DNA from: an uncultured Collinsella sp. | GTDB lineage: Bacteria; Actinomycetota; Coriobacteriia; Coriobacteriales; Coriobacteriaceae | Assembly (NCBI GenBank): GCA_900549575.1 | Contig: URPB01000001.1 | Span: 2,560 to 66,559, forward strand | Direction: 5' to 3' | Length of the DNA: 64,000 bases | Part shown: positions 14,153-61,388 of the stretch, piece by piece | Position numbering within the stretch: the first letter of the stretch is position 1 | How the letters are laid out: each line of letters starts with the position of its first letter | The notes under the pieces: generated by a model | Database searches by the model: none | What the model was told of the DNA's origin: nothing | The model's input: only the letters and a program-made list of their open reading frames with translations | Position numbers and translations under genes: made by a program

Positions 14153-15055
14153 ATGGCAACGCACGAGCTTACGCTCAACCTCAAGAAGACCAACATAGCG
14201 CCGCCCGTCATCACCGTGCACCAGGGCGACAGCGCCGAGGTCCTGAAGGCCGCCATCTACGACGGCGACAAGAAGGCGGCCCTGACGGGCTGCAAGGTGC
14301 ACCTCATGGCTGCGAAACCCGACCACACCTACGTGGAGCAGCAGTTCACTGGCATCAGCGACAACGTGGCCACCGTGACGGTCGACCCCGCCGTCTTCGG
14401 CGTGGCCGGGCTGCTCAAGGTGTGCTACGTGCGCGTGCGGAACGCGGCAGGGCTGGACGCCACCACCGAGAACGTCCTGGTGAACGTGCTGCCCTCGGCG
14501 AGCGCGTCGGGCGAGATATCCGGCCCGTACGTCGATGCGGTGGAGGCGATCATCGCGAACCTCGAAGGGCAGCTAGCCGACGTGAGCGCGCTGAACGCGC
14601 AGATGCAGAAGGCCGAGGCCTCCCGCGCGAGCGCGGAAAACCAGCGCGCCACGAACGAGAAGGCACGCCAGACCGCCGAAACCAAACGCGCAGAGGCCGA
14701 GAAGAAGCGAGCCGCGGCGGAAAGCGACCGCGTGACCGAGGCGTCGCAGCTGAAGACGGCCTCGCAAGCCGCCACGGCTGCGGCAAACGGCGCGGCCTCG
14801 AACGCCGACGCGGCGGCAAACATCGCCCTGCAGATAGCCAACAGCGTGGCGCAGGGCAGCGCGGGCAGCTCGGACATGGCCAAGCAGAAGCAGCAGATAG
14901 CCGACCTGTACGGCAAGCTGGCCGACGCCACTGACGCGTTCATCTACGACGACGGCACCGTGTACTGCCCCGCCTCCAAGGCCAGTGCATCTGGCAGCAC
15001 CATCACGTTCGGGAGCACCTGCACGGCGTCCGGCACAACCCTCAACCTCAAGTAG
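14153..15055 (+). CDS. BppU-N-like baseplate/fibre protein with Ala-rich coiled coil
   Basis: N-terminus LTLNLKKTNIAPPVITVHQGDSAEVLKAAIYDG...LTGCKVHL fits BppU N-terminal Ig-like domain; counterpart of 25776-26774. Confidence 0.55.
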   Translation: MATHELTLNLKKTNIAPPVITVHQGDSAEVLKAAIYDGDKKAALTGCKVHLMAAKPDHTYVEQQFTGISDNVATVTVDPAVFGVAGLLKVCYVRVRNAAGLDATTENVLVNVLPSASASGEISGPYVDAVEAIIANLEGQLADVSALNAQMQKAEASRASAENQRATNEKARQTAETKRAEAEKKRAAAESDRVTEASQLKTASQAATAAANGAASNADAAANIALQIANSVAQGSAGSSDMAKQKQQIADLYGKLADATDAFIYDDGTVYCPASKASASGSTITFGSTCTASGTTLNLK

Positions 15056-15067
15056 AAAGGCAACGAA

Positions 15068-15976
15068 ATGGCACAAGCGAAAACCCTGTCGGTGGGCGGC
15101 ACCGGCTACGAGGTCATCGACGATACCGCGCGCAGCAACGCGCAGACGGCGCTCAACAACGCCGAGTACAACCGCCAGGGCCAAATCGGCAAGTACGGCG
15201 GGCAGAACATCGCCACCATCCTGGCGGGAGAGATCGGCAGCGGCAGCGTGTACGACGCGCTGCACAAGCGAGCCGCCAACGGCAACTTCGCGGGCCTGCG
15301 CGTGGGAGACTACATCGACGTGCCGCTGGTAAGCGCGTCGGGCGTGGCGGCCCAGCAGTCCGTGCGCTTCCTCCTGGCGCACTTCGACCCGTACTACTGC
15401 TGCGGCGACAGCTCCAAAGGCCACCACATCGCCTTCGTGGCCTCCGCGCCCATCGCCGTGGCCAAGACCGTGACCGGCGTTGCCAACGACAGCTTCCTGA
15501 TGTGGAACACGACCAACACGAACCAGGGCACCGCTGACCAGAAATGCCCCTACCCCAACAGCAACCTCAAGGCGTGGGAGACGGCCTTCGAGGCGTGCCT
15601 GCCCGAGAGCCTGACCAAGTACCTGCTGACCCAGCGCGTGCTGCTTGAGGAGCGGTACAGCGCCAGCGGCGCGCTCAACGACTCCAACTCGTGGAGCTGG
15701 CAGGATATCGGCAAGGTGTTCTCGCTGTCCGAGATGGAGGTGTACGGCTGCCCGGTGTGGGGCACCAAGGGCTACAGCGTCGGCTTCGACTGCCAGTTCG
15801 ACCTGTTCCGCGATACCGCGCACCGCTTGAACGGAACTCGGTACAATTGGTGGTTGCGTTCCGTCATGGGTGGCTCCTCGTCCGGCGTGTGCTACGTCAA
15901 CAACAACGGCATTGCCTACTGCAATTCGGCGCCGGCCGTCTGGGTTCGCCCCCGCCCCGGCTTCCTCGTCGGCTAG
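15068..15976 (+). CDS. Receptor-binding (tail fibre tip) protein, DGR target-type with C-terminal variable region
   Basis: 302 aa; homolog of prophage 2 DGR target (shared ...CPVWGTKGYSVGFD.QF... and ...WWLRSVMGGS...); C-terminal 39 codons correspond to the VR of prophage 2. Confidence 0.8.
   Translation: MAQAKTLSVGGTGYEVIDDTARSNAQTALNNAEYNRQGQIGKYGGQNIATILAGEIGSGSVYDALHKRAANGNFAGLRVGDYIDVPLVSASGVAAQQSVRFLLAHFDPYYCCGDSSKGHHIAFVASAPIAVAKTVTGVANDSFLMWNTTNTNQGTADQKCPYPNSNLKAWETAFEACLPESLTKYLLTQRVLLEERYSASGALNDSNSWSWQDIGKVFSLSEMEVYGCPVWGTKGYSVGFDCQFDLFRDTAHRLNGTRYNWWLRSVMGGSSSGVCYVNNNGIAYCNSAPAVWVRPRPGFLVG
15845..15961 (+). repeat. VR-like segment of prophage 1 DGR target (no cognate TR found)
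   Basis: Aligns to prophage 2 TR/VR codon for codon. Positions that are AAY in the prophage 2 TR are here ggc, tac, att, tac, tgc, gtc etc., with aac aac aac retained. Ends in a G/C-only run cgcccccgccccgg. Confidence 0.6.
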
Positions 15977-16015
15977 CCAGCCGAGTAGGCCCCAGGGCCG
16001 AAAGCAGAGCGCGGA

Positions 16016-16171
16016 GAGGAAGGAAGGCGCGACCGTCGGGCTCACGCCCGTAAATACGCACCCCGCGAGGGTGGCCGGACGCTGCTTGCATGGCGCGGCG
16101 CTCCGTGGCTTCGCCGCGTTTCATGGCCATACCTCAAGCGGCTGTCAGAGCCACATTGAAAGCCGTGCGGG
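16016..16171 (+). ncRNA. DGR spacer (Sp)-like conserved region upstream of RT
   Basis: About 75-80 percent identical by eye to 24003-24165 (reverse strand) of prophage 2, with stems conserved and loops changed (cgggc-tcac-gcccg vs cgggc-atgc-gcccg). Confidence 0.5.
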
Positions 16172-17362
16172 GTGCCTCCTGTGAACTCCGAGCAAAGGCG
16201 GGCGGCGCGCCGGAAGCGCCGCGAGGAGAAGCGGGCCAAGGCCAAGGCCGAGCGCGTCAAGACGTGCACGCTTGAGACCGTGGCCGACCTCAACAGCCTG
16301 TGCAAGGCTTCCAAGCAGGCCGCGCGCGGCGTGATGTGGAAGGCGTCCACGCAGCGGTACATGAAGGACTACCTGCGCAACGCCGTCCTGTCCCGCCGCG
16401 ACCTTTTGGAGGGCCGCGACATATGCCGGGGCTTCATCCGCTTCGAACTATGGGAGCGCGGCAAGCTGCGCCACATCAGCGCCGTGCACTTTCCCGAGCG
16501 CGTGGTGCAGAAGTCGCTGTCGCAGAACGCGCTCGTGCCCGCGATCGTGCCCACCCTCATAGCCGCGAACTCCGCGAACATAAAGGGGCGCGGCACCGAC
16601 TACGCCCTGAAGCTGCTCAAGCGCCACCTGGCCGACCACTGGAGGCGGCACGGCCGCGAGGGCTACATACTGCTCGGCGACTTCTCCGACTACTTCGCGC
16701 GCATAGCGCACCAACCCGTCAAAGACCAGGTGGCCTCCGCACTGCTAGATCCGCGCGTGGTCGCCTTGGAGCACCGCCTGATAGACGCGCAGGGCGATGT
16801 GGGCCTGGGGCTGGGCAGCGAGCCGAACCAGATATGCGCCGTCGCGCACCCCAACCGCATCGACCACTACGTAATCGAGATGCTGCGCCCCGAGGCCTAC
16901 GGTCGATATATGGACGACTTCTACCTGATACACGAGTCCAAGGACTACCTGCAGGTGTGCCTGCTGCTCATAGAGCGCAAATGCGCCGAGCTGGGCATCG
17001 AGCTGAACCCGCGCAAGACCCGCGTGGTGAAGCTCACGCGCGGGTTCACGTGGCTGAAGAAGCGCATCTTCTACACGGACACGGGCCGCATAGTCGTGAA
17101 GCCGTGCCGAGACTCCATAACGCGGGAGCGCCGCAAGCTCAAGAAGATGGCCCGCATGGTCGCCGATGGCATCATGACCCCTGAGCAGGTGGAGCAGAGC
17201 TACCAGAGCTGGCGCGGAGGCATGAAGCGGCTGGACGCGCACCGCAGCGTGCGGGCCATGGACGCGCTGTACCGCAGCTTGTTCGGAAATCCCGCGGGGG
17301 GGGGTTGCTCAATGCAATCCAAACCTGGAGGCGACACGGATGGGAACATGCCCCTACCCTAG
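16172..17362 (+). CDS. DGR-type reverse transcriptase
   Basis: GTG 16172 (alternative in-frame GTG 16181). Motifs ...GRYMDDFYLI... (YxDD) and ...LGLGSEPNQICA...; roughly half identical by eye to prophage 2 RT; ORF intact. Confidence 0.85.
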   Translation: MPPVNSEQRRAARRKRREEKRAKAKAERVKTCTLETVADLNSLCKASKQAARGVMWKASTQRYMKDYLRNAVLSRRDLLEGRDICRGFIRFELWERGKLRHISAVHFPERVVQKSLSQNALVPAIVPTLIAANSANIKGRGTDYALKLLKRHLADHWRRHGREGYILLGDFSDYFARIAHQPVKDQVASALLDPRVVALEHRLIDAQGDVGLGLGSEPNQICAVAHPNRIDHYVIEMLRPEAYGRYMDDFYLIHESKDYLQVCLLLIERKCAELGIELNPRKTRVVKLTRGFTWLKKRIFYTDTGRIVVKPCRDSITRERRKLKKMARMVADGIMTPEQVEQSYQSWRGGMKRLDAHRSVRAMDALYRSLFGNPAGGGCSMQSKPGGDTDGNMPLP

Positions 17363-17628: not shown

Positions 17629-17656
17629 AGCGCCCCTTCGGGGGCGCTTTTCTTTT
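17629..17656 (+). terminator. Rho-independent terminator
   Basis: agcgcccc-ttcg-ggggcgct followed by ttttctttt. Confidence 0.7.
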
Positions 17657-17712
17657 GCCCGGCGACACCTCGCGGACAATCGCGGCAGCGATTCGAGGAG
17701 GTGAGAAAACGA

Positions 17713-22892: not shown

Positions 22893-24002
22893 TTAGCTGA
22901 AGAGCTGCTTATAGAGCGCGTCCATGCGCCTTACCGTCTCGTGAGCGTCAAGTCGCTTCATGCCTCCGCGCCACGATTGGTAAGACTGGTTAACTTGCTC
23001 GACGGTCATAACGCCGCGAGCGACCAGCGCCGCTTGCTTCTTAAGCTTGCGCCGCTGCCGTGTCACGGAAGAGCGGCAAGGGCGAACAACCACCTTTTCA
23101 CCCTCGCCATATGAAAACCTCTTCTTCAGGAACACGAAGCCGCGCGACAGCTTCACTACGCGCGTCTTCTTGCGGTTGATGATGATTCCCAGATCGTCGC
23201 AGAGCGCTTCGATGCGCGAAAGCGCGTCCCAAAGCGTCTGCTTGTCAAGCGCGATGCAATAGCTATCGTCCATGTAGCGACCGCTCGCGAGGATGCCCGG
23301 AAGCGAAAGCATCAGATGGTCTATCGGCGACGGTAAGGCCACCGCTAAAATCTGGTTCGGCTCGCTGCCAAGACCAAGCCCGCGCGCGCCGTGAGCGTCT
23401 ATCTGGTCGCACATGACGCGCTTAACGCGCTCATCGTCAATGGCTCTGTCGATGATGCGCTTGCAAGCGTCGTGGTCGATGTTCGCGAAATAGTCCGAGA
23501 AATCGACCTGCAAGATGTAGCCTTCCGTCCCGTGCTTTCGCCGGTGGGCTACAAGCTGACGCTTCATGCGATTGATTGCGTACTCGGTGCCGCGCCCCTT
23601 CACGTTTGCGGCGCATCCCTCTGTCAGGGTAGGCCAGATCGCGGGTGCGAGCGCGTGACGGCTTAAAGACTTCTGTATGACACGCTCCGAGAAGTGGACA
23701 GAGCAGATATGACGAAGCTTTCCGCGCTCGAAAAGGTCAAACTCGATGAAGCCGCGCCGGAAGTCAGCGCCCGTGAGCAGGTCGCGGCGCGCCCGCATGA
23801 TGTTTGGCATGACGCGCCCCATGTAGCGCTGAACGCTTGCCTTCCAGCGAACGCCCGCAGCAGCGCCGTTCGCCGCGCTGTATAGGTTATCGAGGTCTGC
23901 GACGGCTTCTAGCGTGCATCCTTCGATGCGCCTAGCCCTATTCTCCGCGCGTTTGGCATCTCGCCTTGCGCGGCGTGCTGCGCGTCGCTCTTCAGAGTTC
24001 AC
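22893..24002 (-). CDS. DGR reverse transcriptase
   Basis: GTG 24002 (VNSEERRAARR..., colinear with prophage 1 RT start); GRYMDDSYCI and LGLGSEPNQILA motifs; adjacent to TR. ORF-track extension to 24173 overlaps the conserved spacer and is judged non-coding. Confidence 0.9.
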   Translation of the reverse strand: MNSEERRAARRARRDAKRAENRARRIEGCTLEAVADLDNLYSAANGAAAGVRWKASVQRYMGRVMPNIMRARRDLLTGADFRRGFIEFDLFERGKLRHICSVHFSERVIQKSLSRHALAPAIWPTLTEGCAANVKGRGTEYAINRMKRQLVAHRRKHGTEGYILQVDFSDYFANIDHDACKRIIDRAIDDERVKRVMCDQIDAHGARGLGLGSEPNQILAVALPSPIDHLMLSLPGILASGRYMDDSYCIALDKQTLWDALSRIEALCDDLGIIINRKKTRVVKLSRGFVFLKKRFSYGEGEKVVVRPCRSSVTRQRRKLKKQAALVARGVMTVEQVNQSYQSWRGGMKRLDAHETVRRMDALYKQLFS

Positions 24003-24165
24003 GAGGGCACCCCGCGCGGCTTGCAGTCGGCATCCAGCAGCCGCTTGACGGTTGACCATGAAACGCGGTCGGAAGCCGAGAACCGCGCCATGCAAGCAGC
24101 GAACGGCAACCGTCGCGGGGTGCATATTTACGGGCGCATGCCCGATGGTCGCCCCTTCCTTCCTC
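24003..24165 (-). ncRNA. DGR spacer (Sp) region between TR and RT
   Basis: Conserved with 16016-16171 of prophage 1, including compensatory-looking changes; lies where DGR RNAs carry the cDNA-priming spacer. Confidence 0.55.
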
Positions 24166-24218
24166 AAATGCACGGCGCGCGGCGCTTACGGCCGCGCGGT
24201 CTGGCAAAGCTTGGGAAT

Positions 24219-24342
24219 CACGGCAGCGGGCGTATCCAGTCGTTCGTCGGCGCGTTGTTGTTGGCATTGCCGTTGTTGTTGACATTGCACGCGTTGGACG
24301 CAGAACCACCCATGACAGACCGCAGCCACCAATTGACGCGAC
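24219..24342 (-). repeat. DGR template repeat (TR)
   Basis: 124 bp identical to VR 24874-24997 except 8 positions, all T on + strand (A on the coding strand); encodes 11 AAY codons in the target frame. Confidence 0.95.
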
Positions 24343-24370
24343 GATTTCCAAGGGACAACTCGCGAACATT

Positions 24371-24781
24371 TTACCCCTTTCCTATGAGTTTCACGCCAGC
24401 GCGAGCGCCCTTTATCAGCTTAATGTCGCTGTCGATTCGGTCTAGGATTCCTTCGAGCCGCGCGGCCTTGATGGGAAGCCCCATAGTCAGAAGGCTTTGC
24501 ATGTCTTGGTAGAGCTGGTTTAGGTCTGCCAGCGCAAGCGTCATGTAGCGCTTCCGCTCATCGACGTTGCGCGCCGTGTTCGGATAGAATGCGTCGGCCT
24601 TAACCAGATTGAAGACAACGCTTCTCGCCGTCTCTGCCATAGGTACCGCGAAGATGAAGCGGTAGGATTTCGGAACGTCGCGCGACGTTACAAGGCGCGT
24701 CACGTCGTTTCTGATCGCAACCGCCGTGTTGAAATACTCGAAAGCGCTTAGGTTGCGGTTGCGCATGTATACGCCGCTCAC
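24371..24781 (-). CDS. avd: Accessory variability determinant (Avd), four-helix-bundle type
   Basis: 136 aa between VR and TR; GTG 24781 with AGGAGG 7 nt upstream; sequence style of the 23S-rRNA-IVS/Avd family (…SYRFIFAVPMAETARSVVFNLVKADAFYP…). Confidence 0.75.
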   Translation of the reverse strand: MSGVYMRNRNLSAFEYFNTAVAIRNDVTRLVTSRDVPKSYRFIFAVPMAETARSVVFNLVKADAFYPNTARNVDERKRYMTLALADLNQLYQDMQSLLTMGLPIKAARLEGILDRIDSDIKLIKGARAGVKLIGKG

Positions 24782-24811
24782 TTCGCGGCACCTCCTAATC
24801 TGCGACGGTTA

Positions 24812-24834
24812 GGCGCATGCGCAAGGCATGCGCC
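24812..24834 (-). promoter_or_regulatory. GC-rich hairpin just 3' of the target gene (DGR target-recognition-type stem-loop)
   Basis: Perfect 9-bp stem ggcgcatgc / gcatgcgcc with 5-nt loop, 24 nt beyond the stop codon. Confidence 0.5.
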
Positions 24835-24857
24835 AGCGCGGTACTGTGTACGGCTTA

Positions 24858-25760
24858 TCAGCCTATGAGGAAGCACGGCAGCGGGCGTATCCAGTCGTGC
24901 GTCGGCGCGTTGTAGTTGGCATAGCCGTTGGAGCTGACAGTGCACGCGTTGGACGCAGAACCACCCATGACAGACCGCAGCCACCAAGTGACGCGACCGC
25001 CCGCGATGCGGCTTGCCGTATCGCTGGAGATGGGGAACTGGCTATCGAAGCCGACAGAGTAGCCCTTGGTGCCCCATACCGGACAGCCGTAAACCTCCAT
25101 CTCTGAGGGCGACCAGACCTTGCCCAAGTCCGCCCAGCTCCAACCGCTCGATTCGGTGAGCTTTTCGCTCGAAGAATAGCGCTCTTCGAGAAGCACGCGC
25201 TGCGCCATGATCGCGTTCTGAAGCGCGGTCGGCAGCGCTGGCAGGAAGTCGTTGATTTCCCAGTCGTGCAGCTTCGAAACCAAGTATGGGTGCTTTTCCT
25301 CGGCGGTACCGTTGTTGTCGTTCGTATCGCGCCACTGAAGGTAGCTGGTGTTTGATGCCTTGTCTCCGGTGACGCTCACGGGCGCGAGCGGCACCATGAC
25401 GATATGGTGCCCCTTCGCTGTGTCGCCGCACTGGTAATAGTGGTCGATAGCGCCGATGCGGTAGCGCACCGTCTGCGACGGCACGTTAGCGCCCGCTGTG
25501 ATGGGAACGTCGATGTAATCGCCGATGCGAATACCGGCGAAGTTGGCGCTTCGAGCGCGGTTCCGAAGCCATGTGTAAACGTCGGTGCTCCCGATCTCGT
25601 TTGCGAAGACCGAAGCGAGCGAGCGCCCAGCGTAAGAGTTTGTGTTGTGCTGTCGGTCGTATTCCTCGGCAGTCGTTACGGCGTTCGCCGTGTTGCGCGC
25701 AGAAGAATCCTTCAGATTGTAGGCGGTTCCGCCGATAGAGAACTTCGACAAGTCGGCCAT
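24858..25760 (-). CDS. DGR target: receptor-binding (tail fibre tip) protein
   Basis: 300 aa; contains VR at C-terminus; follows BppU-like fibre gene. Confidence 0.9.
   Translation of the reverse strand: MADLSKFSIGGTAYNLKDSSARNTANAVTTAEEYDRQHNTNSYAGRSLASVFANEIGSTDVYTWLRNRARSANFAGIRIGDYIDVPITAGANVPSQTVRYRIGAIDHYYQCGDTAKGHHIVMVPLAPVSVTGDKASNTSYLQWRDTNDNNGTAEEKHPYLVSKLHDWEINDFLPALPTALQNAIMAQRVLLEERYSSSEKLTESSGWSWADLGKVWSPSEMEVYGCPVWGTKGYSVGFDSQFPISSDTASRIAGGRVTWWLRSVMGGSASNACTVSSNGYANYNAPTHDWIRPLPCFLIG
24874..24997 (-). repeat. DGR variable repeat (VR) at 3' end of target gene
   Basis: See TR. Substitutions give N to T, T, S, S, Y, Y, H in the protein ...VTWWLRSVMGGSASNACTVSSNGYANYNAPTHDWIRPLP. 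Confidence 0.95.
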
Positions 25761-50255: not shown

Positions 50256-51752
50256 ATGGTGAAGAACAGAGCAGCCATATACGCGCGCTTCAGCTCGCAC
50301 AATCAGCGCTCTGAGAGTATCGAGATACAAGTTGAGAACTCGCGCGCATACTGCGAGCGCGAGGGCTTGCAGGTCGTGCGGGAATACTGCGACTATGCGC
50401 AGACAGGGCGCAACGTCAACCGCGCTGAGTTCCAGCGCATGATGAACGATGCGAAGCTAGGTCTATTTGATTTTGTGGTGATTTACAAGGTGACGCGCAT
50501 AATGCGCAACCGAGATGAAATGGCCTTGGCTCGAATCATGCTGCGCAAGGCCGGTGTTGAAATACTGTACGCGGGCGAAGAGATCGCGAGCGGTTCGAGC
50601 GGTGTGCTGCAACTAGGCATGCTCGAAGTTCTCGCGGAATGGGAAAGCGCTATCGACAGTGAGCGCATAAGAGACGGAATCCAGAAGAACGCCGCTCGGT
50701 GCCTTGCTAACGGGCATTCGCTATACGGTTGGGATATTGTAGACGGTCGTTATAGCGTCAATGAGCGCGAAGCGGCGCTTATGCGCAAGATGAAGAACAT
50801 GCTGTTTTCCGGCCATTCGGTAGCCGATATCGTGCGGGCGCTCGAAGGTGAGAAGACACGCAATGGAAAGCCCTTCAACCAAGACAAGGTGACTAAGCTT
50901 CTGCGAAGGGTGCAGAACGGCGGAACATATAGCTATGCCGGTCATGTGGTAGAAGGTGGGATGCCGGGTCTTTGGCCGCAAGTAGAACAAGACATGATAG
51001 AAAGCGTCCTTAACGACAGGCACCGCCCGCGCCGCAAGGTAGATTCGTCTAAAGAGTTTCCGCTTTCCGGCAAACTCTACTGCACGAAATGCGGTATGCC
51101 AATGGCGGGAATGAGTGGAACATCTAAGACAGGCAAAGCCTATCACTACTACCGTTGCCGCAAGTGCAGAAGAACAGTGCGCCGTGATCTGATAGAAGAT
51201 GCCGTAGTAGATATGACGCTGCAAGCCGTTGCGCGCGACGATGTGCGACAGCGGATAGCGCAAGGAATGGCGCTCTACCAATCAGAGCAAGAAGAGACGA
51301 AGCCAGAAAGCTACTATCTGAAGAAAGAGCTTAGGCGCATTGATGCGGCGTTCGAACGCATCTGGCAAGCGATAGAAGATGGGATTGCACCACCGGGCGG
51401 AAAAGAGCGCACGGACGAACTGAAGTGCCGCAAAGCGGAAATCGAAGCGCAGCTGCGCATAGCAGAGCGCGACGAATCTATGTCGTTTGGCGTTGACGAA
51501 CTCATGCTGTGGCTCGATGAGATCGCAACGGAACTAACGCCGCTCGATATCCTCAACAAGTTTGTTCGGTTCGCTGAGATTGACGGCAAGAGCAACCGCA
51601 TACGCGTTTACTTTGCCTTCGATAAGCACGGTGACGGCTTTTCGCCTAACAGCGCGGACAAAGGCGAACACCTCTATGAAGAGAGGTGTTCGCCTAATTC
51701 TACGCTGGTGGAGGCGCGGAGAATCGAACTCCGGTCCACGAAAGCCCCCTGA
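50256..51752 (+). CDS. Large serine recombinase (phage integrase)
   Basis: N-terminal resolvase domain AAIYARFSSHNQ...; recombinase domain; zinc ribbon CTKCGMPM...YYRCRKC; coiled coil. Last 47 nt overlap ssrA on the opposite strand. Confidence 0.9.
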   Translation: MVKNRAAIYARFSSHNQRSESIEIQVENSRAYCEREGLQVVREYCDYAQTGRNVNRAEFQRMMNDAKLGLFDFVVIYKVTRIMRNRDEMALARIMLRKAGVEILYAGEEIASGSSGVLQLGMLEVLAEWESAIDSERIRDGIQKNAARCLANGHSLYGWDIVDGRYSVNEREAALMRKMKNMLFSGHSVADIVRALEGEKTRNGKPFNQDKVTKLLRRVQNGGTYSYAGHVVEGGMPGLWPQVEQDMIESVLNDRHRPRRKVDSSKEFPLSGKLYCTKCGMPMAGMSGTSKTGKAYHYYRCRKCRRTVRRDLIEDAVVDMTLQAVARDDVRQRIAQGMALYQSEQEETKPESYYLKKELRRIDAAFERIWQAIEDGIAPPGGKERTDELKCRKAEIEAQLRIAERDESMSFGVDELMLWLDEIATELTPLDILNKFVRFAEIDGKSNRIRVYFAFDKHGDGFSPNSADKGEHLYEERCSPNSTLVEARRIELRSTKAP

Positions 51753-52069
51753 TTGGCATCTCCAAGCTCAGTCGCTGGTTTAGTCTCGGACGCTTTGCGC
51801 GCAGCGACACGCTCGCGGCATCCCAACCGGTTCGGTCTTAGCCCGCGCCATACCGATTACGTGCGCAGGAGCATTCCCCTAACATGACGTCGCGCCGGTG
51901 TCGGGGAAATCACCGGGTTGACGCGCCGCTATAAACTAAGCAGCGAGAGCCATAGGCTCAAAAGAAGAGTTGTTGTCAATTCAATTTGACGGTACCCCTG
52001 TTTAACGAGGCGAGGAGACCTCGGCTTGCTTCCTCTCTCAGAGCTATCGTGTCGAAACCAGTCGCCCCC
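51706..52069 (-). ncRNA. ssrA: tmRNA
   Basis: 5' GGGGGCGACTGGTTTCGAC... pairs with 3' ...CGCCTCCACCA (7-bp acceptor stem with G3-U); T-arm CGGAG-TTCGATT-CTCCG; internal tag ORF ...DNNSSFEPMALAA-stop. Confidence 0.9.
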
Positions 52070-61081: not shown

Positions 61082-61330
61082 ATTCAGCCCCGCCTGACCC
61101 GAACGGCCGAGTCGTCACGGAACCGAGGGGCCGGGCGCAGGGCCTTGCCTCTCAATGAGTTCCCTTCAAAACAATGGGCGTGCCGACGGCACGCCCATTC
61201 ACTCTATTCCATCCAGCCCGCCTGACCCGAACGGCCGAGTCGTCTGGCCGGGGAAGCCCCGAGTCGCCGGGGTGTTTGCTCCAAATGAGTTCCGCATGCA
61301 AAGAAGGCCACTAAATGTGGCCTTCGTCTT
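61082..61330. repeat. Two tandem copies of a ~125-bp intergenic repeat
   Basis: cag(c)cccgcctgacccgaacggccgagtcgtc at 61085-61116 and 61214-61244, each followed by related ...ggccgggg...c(a)aatgagttcc. Confidence 0.7.
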
Positions 61331-61388
61331 GCATAGGACTGTTTGAAATTTGGAGCAAACACCCCGGCGACTCGGGGCTTCCCCGGCC
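61246..61388. repeat. Perfect 41-bp inverted repeat with 61-bp spacer (MITE/REP-like; also gatB terminator)
   Basis: ggccggggaagccccgagtcgccggggtgtttgctccaaat (61246-61286) is the exact reverse complement of 61348-61388; the spacer has its own hairpin aaggccac-taaa-gtggcctt. Confidence 0.8.

Follow-up and report, generated by a model that had tools for sequence, protein, structure and literature searches.

The prototype of the elements analysed here is the diversity-generating retroelement (DGR) of Bordetella phage BPP-1, which has the order mtd-avd-TR-brt. Its target gene ends in a C-terminal variable repeat (VR) with a G/C run and an initiation of mutagenic homing (IMH) site, followed by a hairpin and avd; a template repeat (TR) with the variant site IMH*, a structured spacer RNA and the reverse transcriptase (RT) gene complete the element. 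An avd gene is present in 74% of DGRs. DGRs with avd are classed as Architecture B, and those without it as Architecture A (Wu et al. 2018, PMC5758913). In BPP-1, the hairpin is required for efficient homing (PMC3240598), and reverse transcription is abolished when the upstream strand of a duplex formed with the spacer is deleted; this duplex, termed 'cPRT Stop', is predicted in 207 of 278 DGRs (bioRxiv 10.1101/2023.10.23.563531). We analysed a 64,000-nt stretch of DNA from an uncultured Collinsella sp. (contig URPB01000001.1, positions 2,560 to 66,559; hereafter the window), which contains two prophages lying tail-to-tail, both with their nearest kin in public collections in Collinsella, a gut actinobacterium. 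Prophage 2 carries a complete and canonical DGR, unlike prophage 1, whose target gene, VR, spacer RNA and RT are accompanied by neither a TR nor avd. We consider, with a probability of roughly 85%, that the prophage 1 element is what remains of a canonical DGR inactivated by a single deletion of 738 nt; the DGR family to which it belongs is common in Collinsella prophages.

A search with the prophage 1 RT yielded 80 Collinsella loci with an RT at least 92% identical to that of the window, and RT regions were aligned by MAFFT with fast settings. Given enough upstream sequence, all but one of these loci (L026, see below) showed the arrangement target-VR, about 620 nt with avd, and TR-RT-2-RT, where RT-2 denotes the spacer RNA (Rfam RF03077). 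In IMG/VR, 56 loci had avd beside the TR and one was collapsed in the same way as the window; GTDB genomes contained about 62 canonical loci, one collapse of a 5′ class and no junction of the window class. In intact cassettes, target-VR with its G/C run and IMH comes first, followed by a hairpin of 10 bp, a terminator, avd, the TR with its G/C run and IMH*, RT-2 RNA and RT; nearly all of about 120 related Collinsella loci have the order target-VR-hairpin-avd-TR-RT-2-RT. Thus, the comparison with related prophages that had been proposed in a preliminary description of the locus recovered the intact target-avd-TR-RT order, from which the window lacks one repeat period.

The closest intact relative, L030 (JAXKBK010000045.1), is 99.5% identical to the window over RT-2 and RT. 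BLAST against this locus showed that exactly 738 nt, equal to one repeat period, are absent from the window: L030 1-5080 aligns up to window position 15986, and L030 from 5670 onwards aligns from window position 15838. In L030 and in a second intact sibling, L001 of C. aerofaciens (NZ_JBCPDH010000006.1), the target is 98% identical to that of the window, and the G/C run, the IMH, the spacer RNA, the gene order and the position beside the tmRNA gene are all shared. By contrast, the window is without the 10-bp G+C hairpin next to the VR, a terminator-like hairpin with T6, avd (156 aa in L001, its product 52% identical to the Avd of prophage 2), the segment upstream of the TR with its spacer-pairing strand, and the TR itself. 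In canonical loci, the terminator-like hairpin (GCCCGCGAAGCGGGC followed by T6; for example, L030 5081-5160) lies between the VR hairpin and avd; with its loss, transcription of the tail operon should run into the RT-2 RNA and RT of the window.

The site of the deletion could be read from the flanks of the two repeats. The VR side of canonical loci reads ...CGCCCCCGCCCCGG CTTCCTCGTCGGCTAG CCAGCCGAGT GCTCTATAC... and the TR side ...CGCCCCCGCCCCGG ATTCCCTTACTG CCAGACCGAGT AGGCCCCAGGGCCGAAAGC..., while the flank in the window reads ...CCCCGG CTTCCTCGTCGGCTAG CCAGCCGAGT AGGCCCCAGGG.... The relatives' TR carries the IMH* ATTCCCTTACTGCCAGACCGAGT where the window has the IMH CTTCCTCGTCGGCTAGCCAGCCGAGT. 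As the window is of VR type through CCAGCCGAGT and of TR-side type from 15987, the repeat that survives is VR throughout and retains the IMH and stop codon of the VR; the TR was lost entire. The crossover patch, CCAG(A)CCGAGT, constitutes the final 6-10 nt of the IMH/IMH* homology and lies downstream of both repeats. The preliminary description had proposed a collapse by recombination between VR and TR, with loss of avd and one repeat. Set against more than 100 intact relatives, such a loss, amounting to 738 nt, stands, whereas the placement of the crossover inside the repeat does not.

We propose that a single deletion, with its crossover in CCAG(A)CCGAGT, would have linked the point where the VR-side homology stops to its counterpart behind the TR. 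Such an event would take with it the hairpin, the terminator, avd, the spacer-pairing strand and the TR, and would spare the diversified VR, the IMH, the native protein end, the spacer RNA and the RT. With both template and Avd gone, the RT would be left without anything to copy, and the receptor-binding end would be fixed in its last diversified state. Such a frozen receptor-binding protein had been suggested before, and the comparison with intact relatives lends it support, although we infer the loss of activity itself. The 99.5% identity to L030 indicates that the deletion is recent. We also considered, and rejected, an RT-mediated origin of the deletion, as we found no intermediate of the known priming or homing pathway that would yield an IMH-spacer junction.

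Because VR/TR repeats often break or mis-join short-read assemblies, and many of the related contigs do end at these repeats, VR and TR might have been collapsed by the assembler. We assign this a negligible probability. The junction lies outside the long repeat, and the parental flanks share only CCGAGT (6 nt), so that no k-mer assembler could build the junction from a canonical genome. In addition, separate assemblies at ENA and JGI agree with this sequence to within 0-1 mismatch in 20.9 kb, and the junction recurs in eight other contigs. The coordinates of the elements discussed are listed in Table 1.

Table 1 Features of the two DGR loci. Positions are those of the window.
Feature	Position	Strand	Evidence or remark
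Prophage 1: tail/baseplate gene, BppU_N domain, directly 5′ of the target	14153..15055	+	Pfam PF10651, E 1.7e-10; gene order kept in relatives
Prophage 1: DGR target gene, 302 aa, intact, C-terminus ...RPRPGFLVG*	15068..15976	+	Pfam PF19789 (DUF6273), E 5e-8
Prophage 1: variable repeat, orphan	15838..15960	+	Homology to both VR and TR of L030 begins at 15838
Prophage 1: G/C-only run CGCCCCCGCCCCGG	15947-15960	+	3′ end of VR
Prophage 1: VR-type IMH flank CTTCCTCGTCGGCTAGCCAGCCGAGT, with stop codon 15974-15976	15961..15986	+	VR/TR flanks of seven canonical loci side by side
Prophage 1: RT-2 RNA (Rfam RF03077), DGR spacer RNA, full length	15972..16195	+	121.5 bits, model 1-222
Prophage 1: deletion junction	15977..15987	+	CCAGCCGAGT, the last shared patch on the VR side (15977-15986), then TR-side AGGCCCCAGGG from 15987
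Prophage 1: spacer strand AAGGCGCGACCGTCG	16024..16038	+	In most canonical relatives, paired with CGGCGGTCGCGCCTT immediately 5′ of the TR; partner deleted here
Prophage 1: reverse transcriptase, uninterrupted, YMDD present	16181..17362	+	RVT_1; PHROG 1423, E 2e-65
Prophage 2: canonical DGR, internal comparator	22893..25760	-	
Prophage 2: target gene	25760..24858	-	
Prophage 2: VR	24997..24869	-	
Prophage 2: hairpin	between VR and avd	-	
Prophage 2: avd	24781..24371	-	
Prophage 2: TR	24342..24214	-	
Prophage 2: RT-2 RNA (RF03077)	24209..23987	-	
Prophage 2: RT	24002..22893	-	

We then compared the orphan VR with 50 distinct TRs of the family (family TR sequence, AATTGGTGGYTGCGTTCCGTCATGGGTGGCTCCTCGTCCAACGTGTGCTACGTCAACAACAAC...). 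Against the best of these, the window VR showed seven differences, all seven at TR adenines and none elsewhere. By our own arithmetic, with about 22 adenines per 116 TR positions, the chance of this is (22/116)^7, or about 1e-5. Against the cognate TRs of close relatives, L008 among them, the 7-8 substitutions were likewise all at TR adenines and gave the codon changes AAC>GGC, AAT>ATT, AAC>TAC, TAC>TGC, ACG>CCG and AAC/GAC>GCC. Adenine-site differences of this kind were found in 87 canonical VR/TR pairs of relatives, with a mean of 9.5 adenine-site and 0.8 other differences. The VR also ends, as in other DGRs, in a G/C run and an IMH distinct from the IMH* of the TR. Judged by its sequence, it is a genuine, formerly diversified VR.

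These findings agree in most respects with the preliminary description, which had relied on prophage 2. That segment 15845-15961 is colinear with the prophage 2 repeats was borne out, with 87 of 117 positions identical to the TR (24334-24218) and 83 of 117 identical to the VR (24989-24873), and its IMH-like G/C-only run corresponds to CGCCCCCGCCCCGG (15947-15960). Its list of codons altered by past adenine mutagenesis is correct as to the footprint, but the first 'tac' and the 'gtc' are templated according to the cognate TR. The count of 14 adenines in the VR-like segment is right; that of 27 adenines in the 124-nt prophage 2 TR becomes 28 on recounting. Prophage 2 itself showed nine differences between TR and VR, all nine at TR adenines. 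In both prophages, the VRs are identical across the assemblies of the strain, a comparison at assembly level that does not discriminate ongoing variation. The VR of one related target protein, P0042, is undiversified or freshly reset, as what it encodes is exactly the sequence of the TR (NVCYVNNNGNANYNSATNVW).

To look for a missing template, every 117-mer on both strands of the window was scanned, with the requirement that each position either match the VR or be adenine. Only the prophage 2 TR (101/117) and VR (94/117) rose above background, all other 117-mers in the window scoring at most 77/117. Similarly, tblastn with the cognate Avd (from L001) and the prophage 2 Avd found only the prophage 2 avd in the window, as expected from the earlier statement that prophage 1 shows no second repeat and no Avd-like open reading frame (ORF). 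The part of prophage 1 to the left of the window, which the preliminary description had singled out as worth searching, was read from public metagenome contigs of the strain; these 6.5 kb, holding replication genes and terminase, contained neither a TR nor avd. Thus, no TR/VR pair with adenine-only differences was found in prophage 1 (window plus 6.5 kb to the left), and we class the element as a DGR remnant rather than a functional DGR. Neither of the two Avd proteins was recognized by NCBIfam, PHROGs or Pfam, and PDB searches with Avd returned nothing useful.

A template might nevertheless be supplied in trans, if a second prophage with a DGR of the prophage 1 family provided TR RNA, Avd and RT to the orphan VR through its retained IMH. 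The IMH and the G/C run are intact, the collapsed loci described below have diverse VRs, and some Collinsella genomes do hold two elements of this family. Such pairs are L018 and L020, 35 kb apart on CATXMO010000002.1, and L031 and L047 in the complete genome of Collinsella sp. i05-0019-G5. However, the VR-proximal hairpin has been deleted, the diversity of the collapsed VRs is explained by independent deletions on different backgrounds, and the TR of the only other DGR in view, that of prophage 2, differs from the prophage 1 VR by 16 non-adenine mismatches. We therefore regard diversification in trans as improbable. Action of the prophage 2 DGR itself on the prophage 1 VR was rejected on account of these 16 mismatches and of its different G/C run and IMH. 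The two loci do share a homologous target (52% amino acid identity), an RT (59.5%) and the RT-2 RNA, and the prophage 2 Avd belongs to the same family as the Avd of the prophage 1 relatives, but the prophage 2 TR is too divergent to serve prophage 1.

We next considered which RNA elements of the cassette survive. The RT-2 RNA of the window, which ends inside the start of the RT gene, scored 121.5 bits against a threshold of 40, compared with 135-142 bits for canonical relatives and 117-127 bits for relatives with the junction; its 5′ stem appears to be slightly damaged. This match clarifies the 39 nt between the stop codon and the spacer (15977-16015), which the preliminary description had correctly delimited but credited with only patchy similarity to the sequence after the prophage 2 TR: they form the 5′ hairpin of the RT-2 RNA and belong to its full-length match. 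RT-2 has been published only as an RNA motif near RT genes, while RT-10 was tied to the BPP-1 spacer and other motifs were guessed to belong to other DGRs (PMC5737381). RT-2 was found in precisely one position, between TR and RT, in more than 100 DGRs by a wide margin, and its genomic context can be taken as settled. The prophage 1 family thus differs from BPP-1 in having RT-2, not RT-10, as its spacer RNA (PMC5737381) and a target of the DUF6273 family.

In most canonical loci, a contiguous helix of 11-15 bp can form between the spacer and the stretch that immediately precedes the TR; this helix matches the 'cPRT Stop' duplex of the BPP-1 ribonucleoprotein. Its length was judged as the longest contiguous helix relative to shuffled sequences, a test that replaced RNAduplex energies, which on G+C-rich segments of 70 nt by 230 nt were over-extended and discriminated poorly. 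A helix of 15 bp was reached by 1 of 1000 shuffles. At the equivalent position, prophage 2 can form a 10-bp helix that includes a compensatory G-C swap. When the spacer of the window was paired with the stretch preceding the VR, no helix exceeded 7 bp, which is the chance level (shuffle mean, 7.75), so that the duplex is absent. The hairpin downstream of the IMH is also absent from prophage 1, where the IMH runs straight into RT-2. In canonical relatives it has a 10-bp stem, the 76-nt region of hairpin plus terminator having a folding energy of -21.4 kcal/mol (z -4.7), and in prophage 2 it has a 9-bp stem with the same CTTGC loop.

These observations bear on the more exotic option raised in the preliminary description, that a transcript of VR and spacer templates itself. 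Here, the target transcript would run through VR and IMH into RT-2, the RT would copy the VR, perhaps with the Avd of prophage 2, and the cDNA would return to the VR. The layout would allow this: measured from a full-length RT-2 RNA, the VR occupies the exact place of the TR, the deletion has removed the terminator that separated target from spacer, the RT is intact, and 8 kb away lies a gene for an Avd with 52% identity to the cognate one. But the cognate-type avd is absent, the upstream strand of the predicted spacer duplex, whose BPP-1 equivalent is essential, is gone and replaced by a helix of chance length, and RT-2, at 121.5 bits compared with about 140 for canonical loci, has a weakened 5′ stem. 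Self-templating should also erode adenines, yet the window VR holds 14 and the collapsed VRs 8-16, compared with 12.0 ± 2.8 in 88 ordinary VRs of the family and a mean of 21.3 in 116 nt of TR, and AAC AAC AAC persists in the window VR. Finally, one of the collapsed loci, L086, has a frameshifted RT. We find self-templating barely credible and return to the remnant of an inactivated DGR as the preferred explanation.

We searched for a 20-nt junction string in the 80 genome loci, in metagenome contigs and in IMG/VR. It occurred in none of the 80 genome loci but in seven human-gut metagenome contigs and one IMG/VR contig; matches in L085 and L089 were discarded as chance occurrences in unrelated sequence. 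Of the eight junction contigs, six have the order target-VR-IMH-RT-2-RT and neither avd nor TR, one is truncated at the VR, and one is L087, discussed below. The VRs of the collapsed loci are all mutually different, only at TR-adenine positions, and differ from their best TRs at 6-12 adenine sites and 0-1 other positions, while their RT-2 and RT sequences differ by 3-10%. In the RT region, most collapsed loci are nearer to canonical loci than to any other collapsed locus, L081 and L090 being ambiguous. Different VRs on different RT backgrounds indicate that the deletion is recurrent, and the economical reading of these sequences is that several independent deletions, probably at least five, have occurred. 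The identity of the junctions is no proof of common descent, since any crossover after the last IMH/IMH* difference gives one and the same junction string.

Two other loci collapsed elsewhere. In L026 (3465-3810), the crossover lies at the 5′ end of the repeat, leaving TR content, IMH* and the protein end GFPYCQTE*; this locus comes from a low-coverage metagenome-assembled genome, in which an assembly collapse is possible. In L165 (4780-5000), the crossover lies in the 3′ conserved block, leaving VR content with IMH* and again the end ...GFPYCQTE*; this locus also has a 1-nt insertion that shifts the frame. Of the three crossover classes, only that of the window leaves the selected protein unchanged, and selection may be the reason why this class persists. 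A stronger version holds that the deletion is a recurrent, selected 'lock' that fixes good receptor-binding variants, its boldest form adding that the VR templates itself weakly with the Avd of prophage 2 or of a sibling phage; we consider this very improbable. Decay has gone further in some collapsed loci. In L086 (9.6x coverage), a 2-nt GC insertion at the equivalent of window position 16706 shifts the RT frame ahead of the catalytic motif, and in L084, the loss of one C from the G/C run (equivalent to window 15947-15960) shifts the frame of the target.

The same end product could also arise in two steps, if the TR first gained a VR-type IMH by gene conversion from the VR, which would make the TR itself a possible target, and the resulting near-identical repeats of about 150 nt then recombined, with deletion of avd. 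A patch of 6-10 nt is short for RecA-type recombination, and L087 (ERZ824600 NODE_15000, 3985 nt) has the order predicted for the intermediate: its positions 1-865 contain avd, a TR-type 5′ flank with the spacer-pairing strand, a repeat with six adenine-site changes, a VR-type IMH and RT-2. On the other hand, L087 is a single contig of 2.7x coverage that may be a chimera of canonical and collapsed strains joined through the 39-nt conserved start of the repeat, and nothing in the window itself tells a one-step from a two-step origin. L087 could thus represent a natural TR with an acquired IMH, self-mutagenized, an intermediate of a two-step collapse or a chimeric contig. We consider the two-step route a serious but unlikely alternative to the single deletion. 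TR self-mutagenesis has been reported in engineered E. coli DGR systems, and the original IMH*-to-IMH swap was reportedly done in BPP-1. Engineered homing-target TRs share with the window and L087 an IMH-bearing repeat immediately before the spacer RNA, but these constructs retain avd and the segment upstream of the TR, neither of which is present in the window.

Several points weigh against an inactivated remnant. That the hairpin and the upstream strand are needed is known from the BPP-1 element alone, and the hairpin proved dispensable in one E. coli DGR reconstitution. The RT and the RT-2 RNA are undamaged here, which fits a very recent event or a retained function. Moreover, only about 70 kb of the genome was seen in total, and another phage of this family might provide a matching TR, Avd and RT that work in trans on the intact IMH. 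The inactivity of the remnant is something that we infer. Taken together, the evidence points to a dead element, in which decay has yet to reach the RT in this strain.

The prophage 1 element descends from a BPP-1-type DGR with avd (Architecture B). It resembles Architecture A DGRs (PMC5758913) in having no avd next to the RT, but these keep their TR and belong to lineages that never had avd, whereas prophage 1 is also without a TR and its sister elements all have avd. It is the natural equivalent of engineered delta-TR and delta-avd mutants, which lose activity. Literature searches found no described natural avd-TR deletion at the IMH/IMH* boundary, and full-text searches on DGR loss found only 'partial' or 'incomplete' DGRs, put down to fragmented assemblies, and theory, including a 2026 preprint that predicts DGR loss in stable environments. 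The cassette is an ordinary decay product of a known system, to which its recurrence, its precise junction and its intact neighbor add interest. DGRs are usually catalogued as present or absent, and natural routes of loss are rarely documented; here, the direct repeats of the cassette itself provide a recurrent route. With three crossover classes, one of them protein-preserving, the family lends itself to the question of when phages turn off tail-fibre hypermutation in nature, and an intact and a collapsed DGR in adjacent prophages of one host provide an internal control. As a caution, DGR finders keyed to the RT will put the incompleteness of such loci down to technical causes, although they are true deletions.

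The BppU_N gene directly upstream places the target in a tail-tip module. The target itself matched PF19789 with 33.3 bits (gathering threshold, 23.5). Its homologs were 84-97% identical in all 120 of the 120 listed, nearly all with the DUF6273 domain, and homologs at 84-93% identity had the same protein ending. With regard to a possible C-type-lectin fold, on which DGR variable proteins of the Mtd/TvpA type display their VR residues, PDB sequence and profile searches with the target gave no match, and the AlphaFold2 model was unusable (mean predicted local distance difference test score, 41.5), being built on a shallow alignment of 26 sequences, all but one of them 84-95% identical to the query. 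Numerous public homologs, namely P0005, P0023, P0030/31, P0034, P0044, P0062 and P0068/70 (488-494 aa), are read-through fusions of target and Avd caused by 1-nt indels in the VR, the G/C run or the IMH, which may be either real DGR-associated frameshifts or homopolymer sequencing errors. P0033 (448 aa) has a deletion from mid-VR to just upstream of avd.

The ORFs of the target and, as stated in the preliminary description, of the 396-codon RT are uninterrupted in the ORF list. For the RT, 396 codons is the longest ORF (16172-17362), and a GTG at 16181 is the likely start, giving 393 aa. The protein is 99% identical to RTs from intact cassettes, and an exact look-up of its sequence gave no match. 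Its best PDB match, nearly full length, was 8ub7_A, a reverse transcriptase of 328 aa (E 8e-12); we take entries 8ub7-8ube to be the BPP-1 bRT. Near the 3′ end of the RT gene lies a G9 run (17296-17304), which is G7 or G8 in relatives, both canonical (L030) and collapsed (L084, L088 and L081). Such length variation shifts the frame of the last 20 or so codons, making the C-terminal tail of the RT variable in length and sequence.

Elsewhere in the window, the 32-kb prophage 2 (19690-51685) sits exactly between prophage 1 and the tmRNA gene (51706-52069, minus strand), while the prophage 1-type elements of relatives end about 2.3 kb from that gene. The ends of prophage 2 are marked only by a short imperfect repeat (GTGTTCGCCTA...TGGTGGAG). 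Outside both prophages, a perfect 41-nt inverted repeat with a 61-nt spacer occupies 61246-61388. Finally, a 49-nt direct repeat, 80% identical between its copies (CGGG..CTTTTCTTTTGCC.GGCGACACCTCG...), occurs at two intergenic sites of prophage 1 (2721-2769 and 17639-17687) and may be a shared terminator or promoter module.

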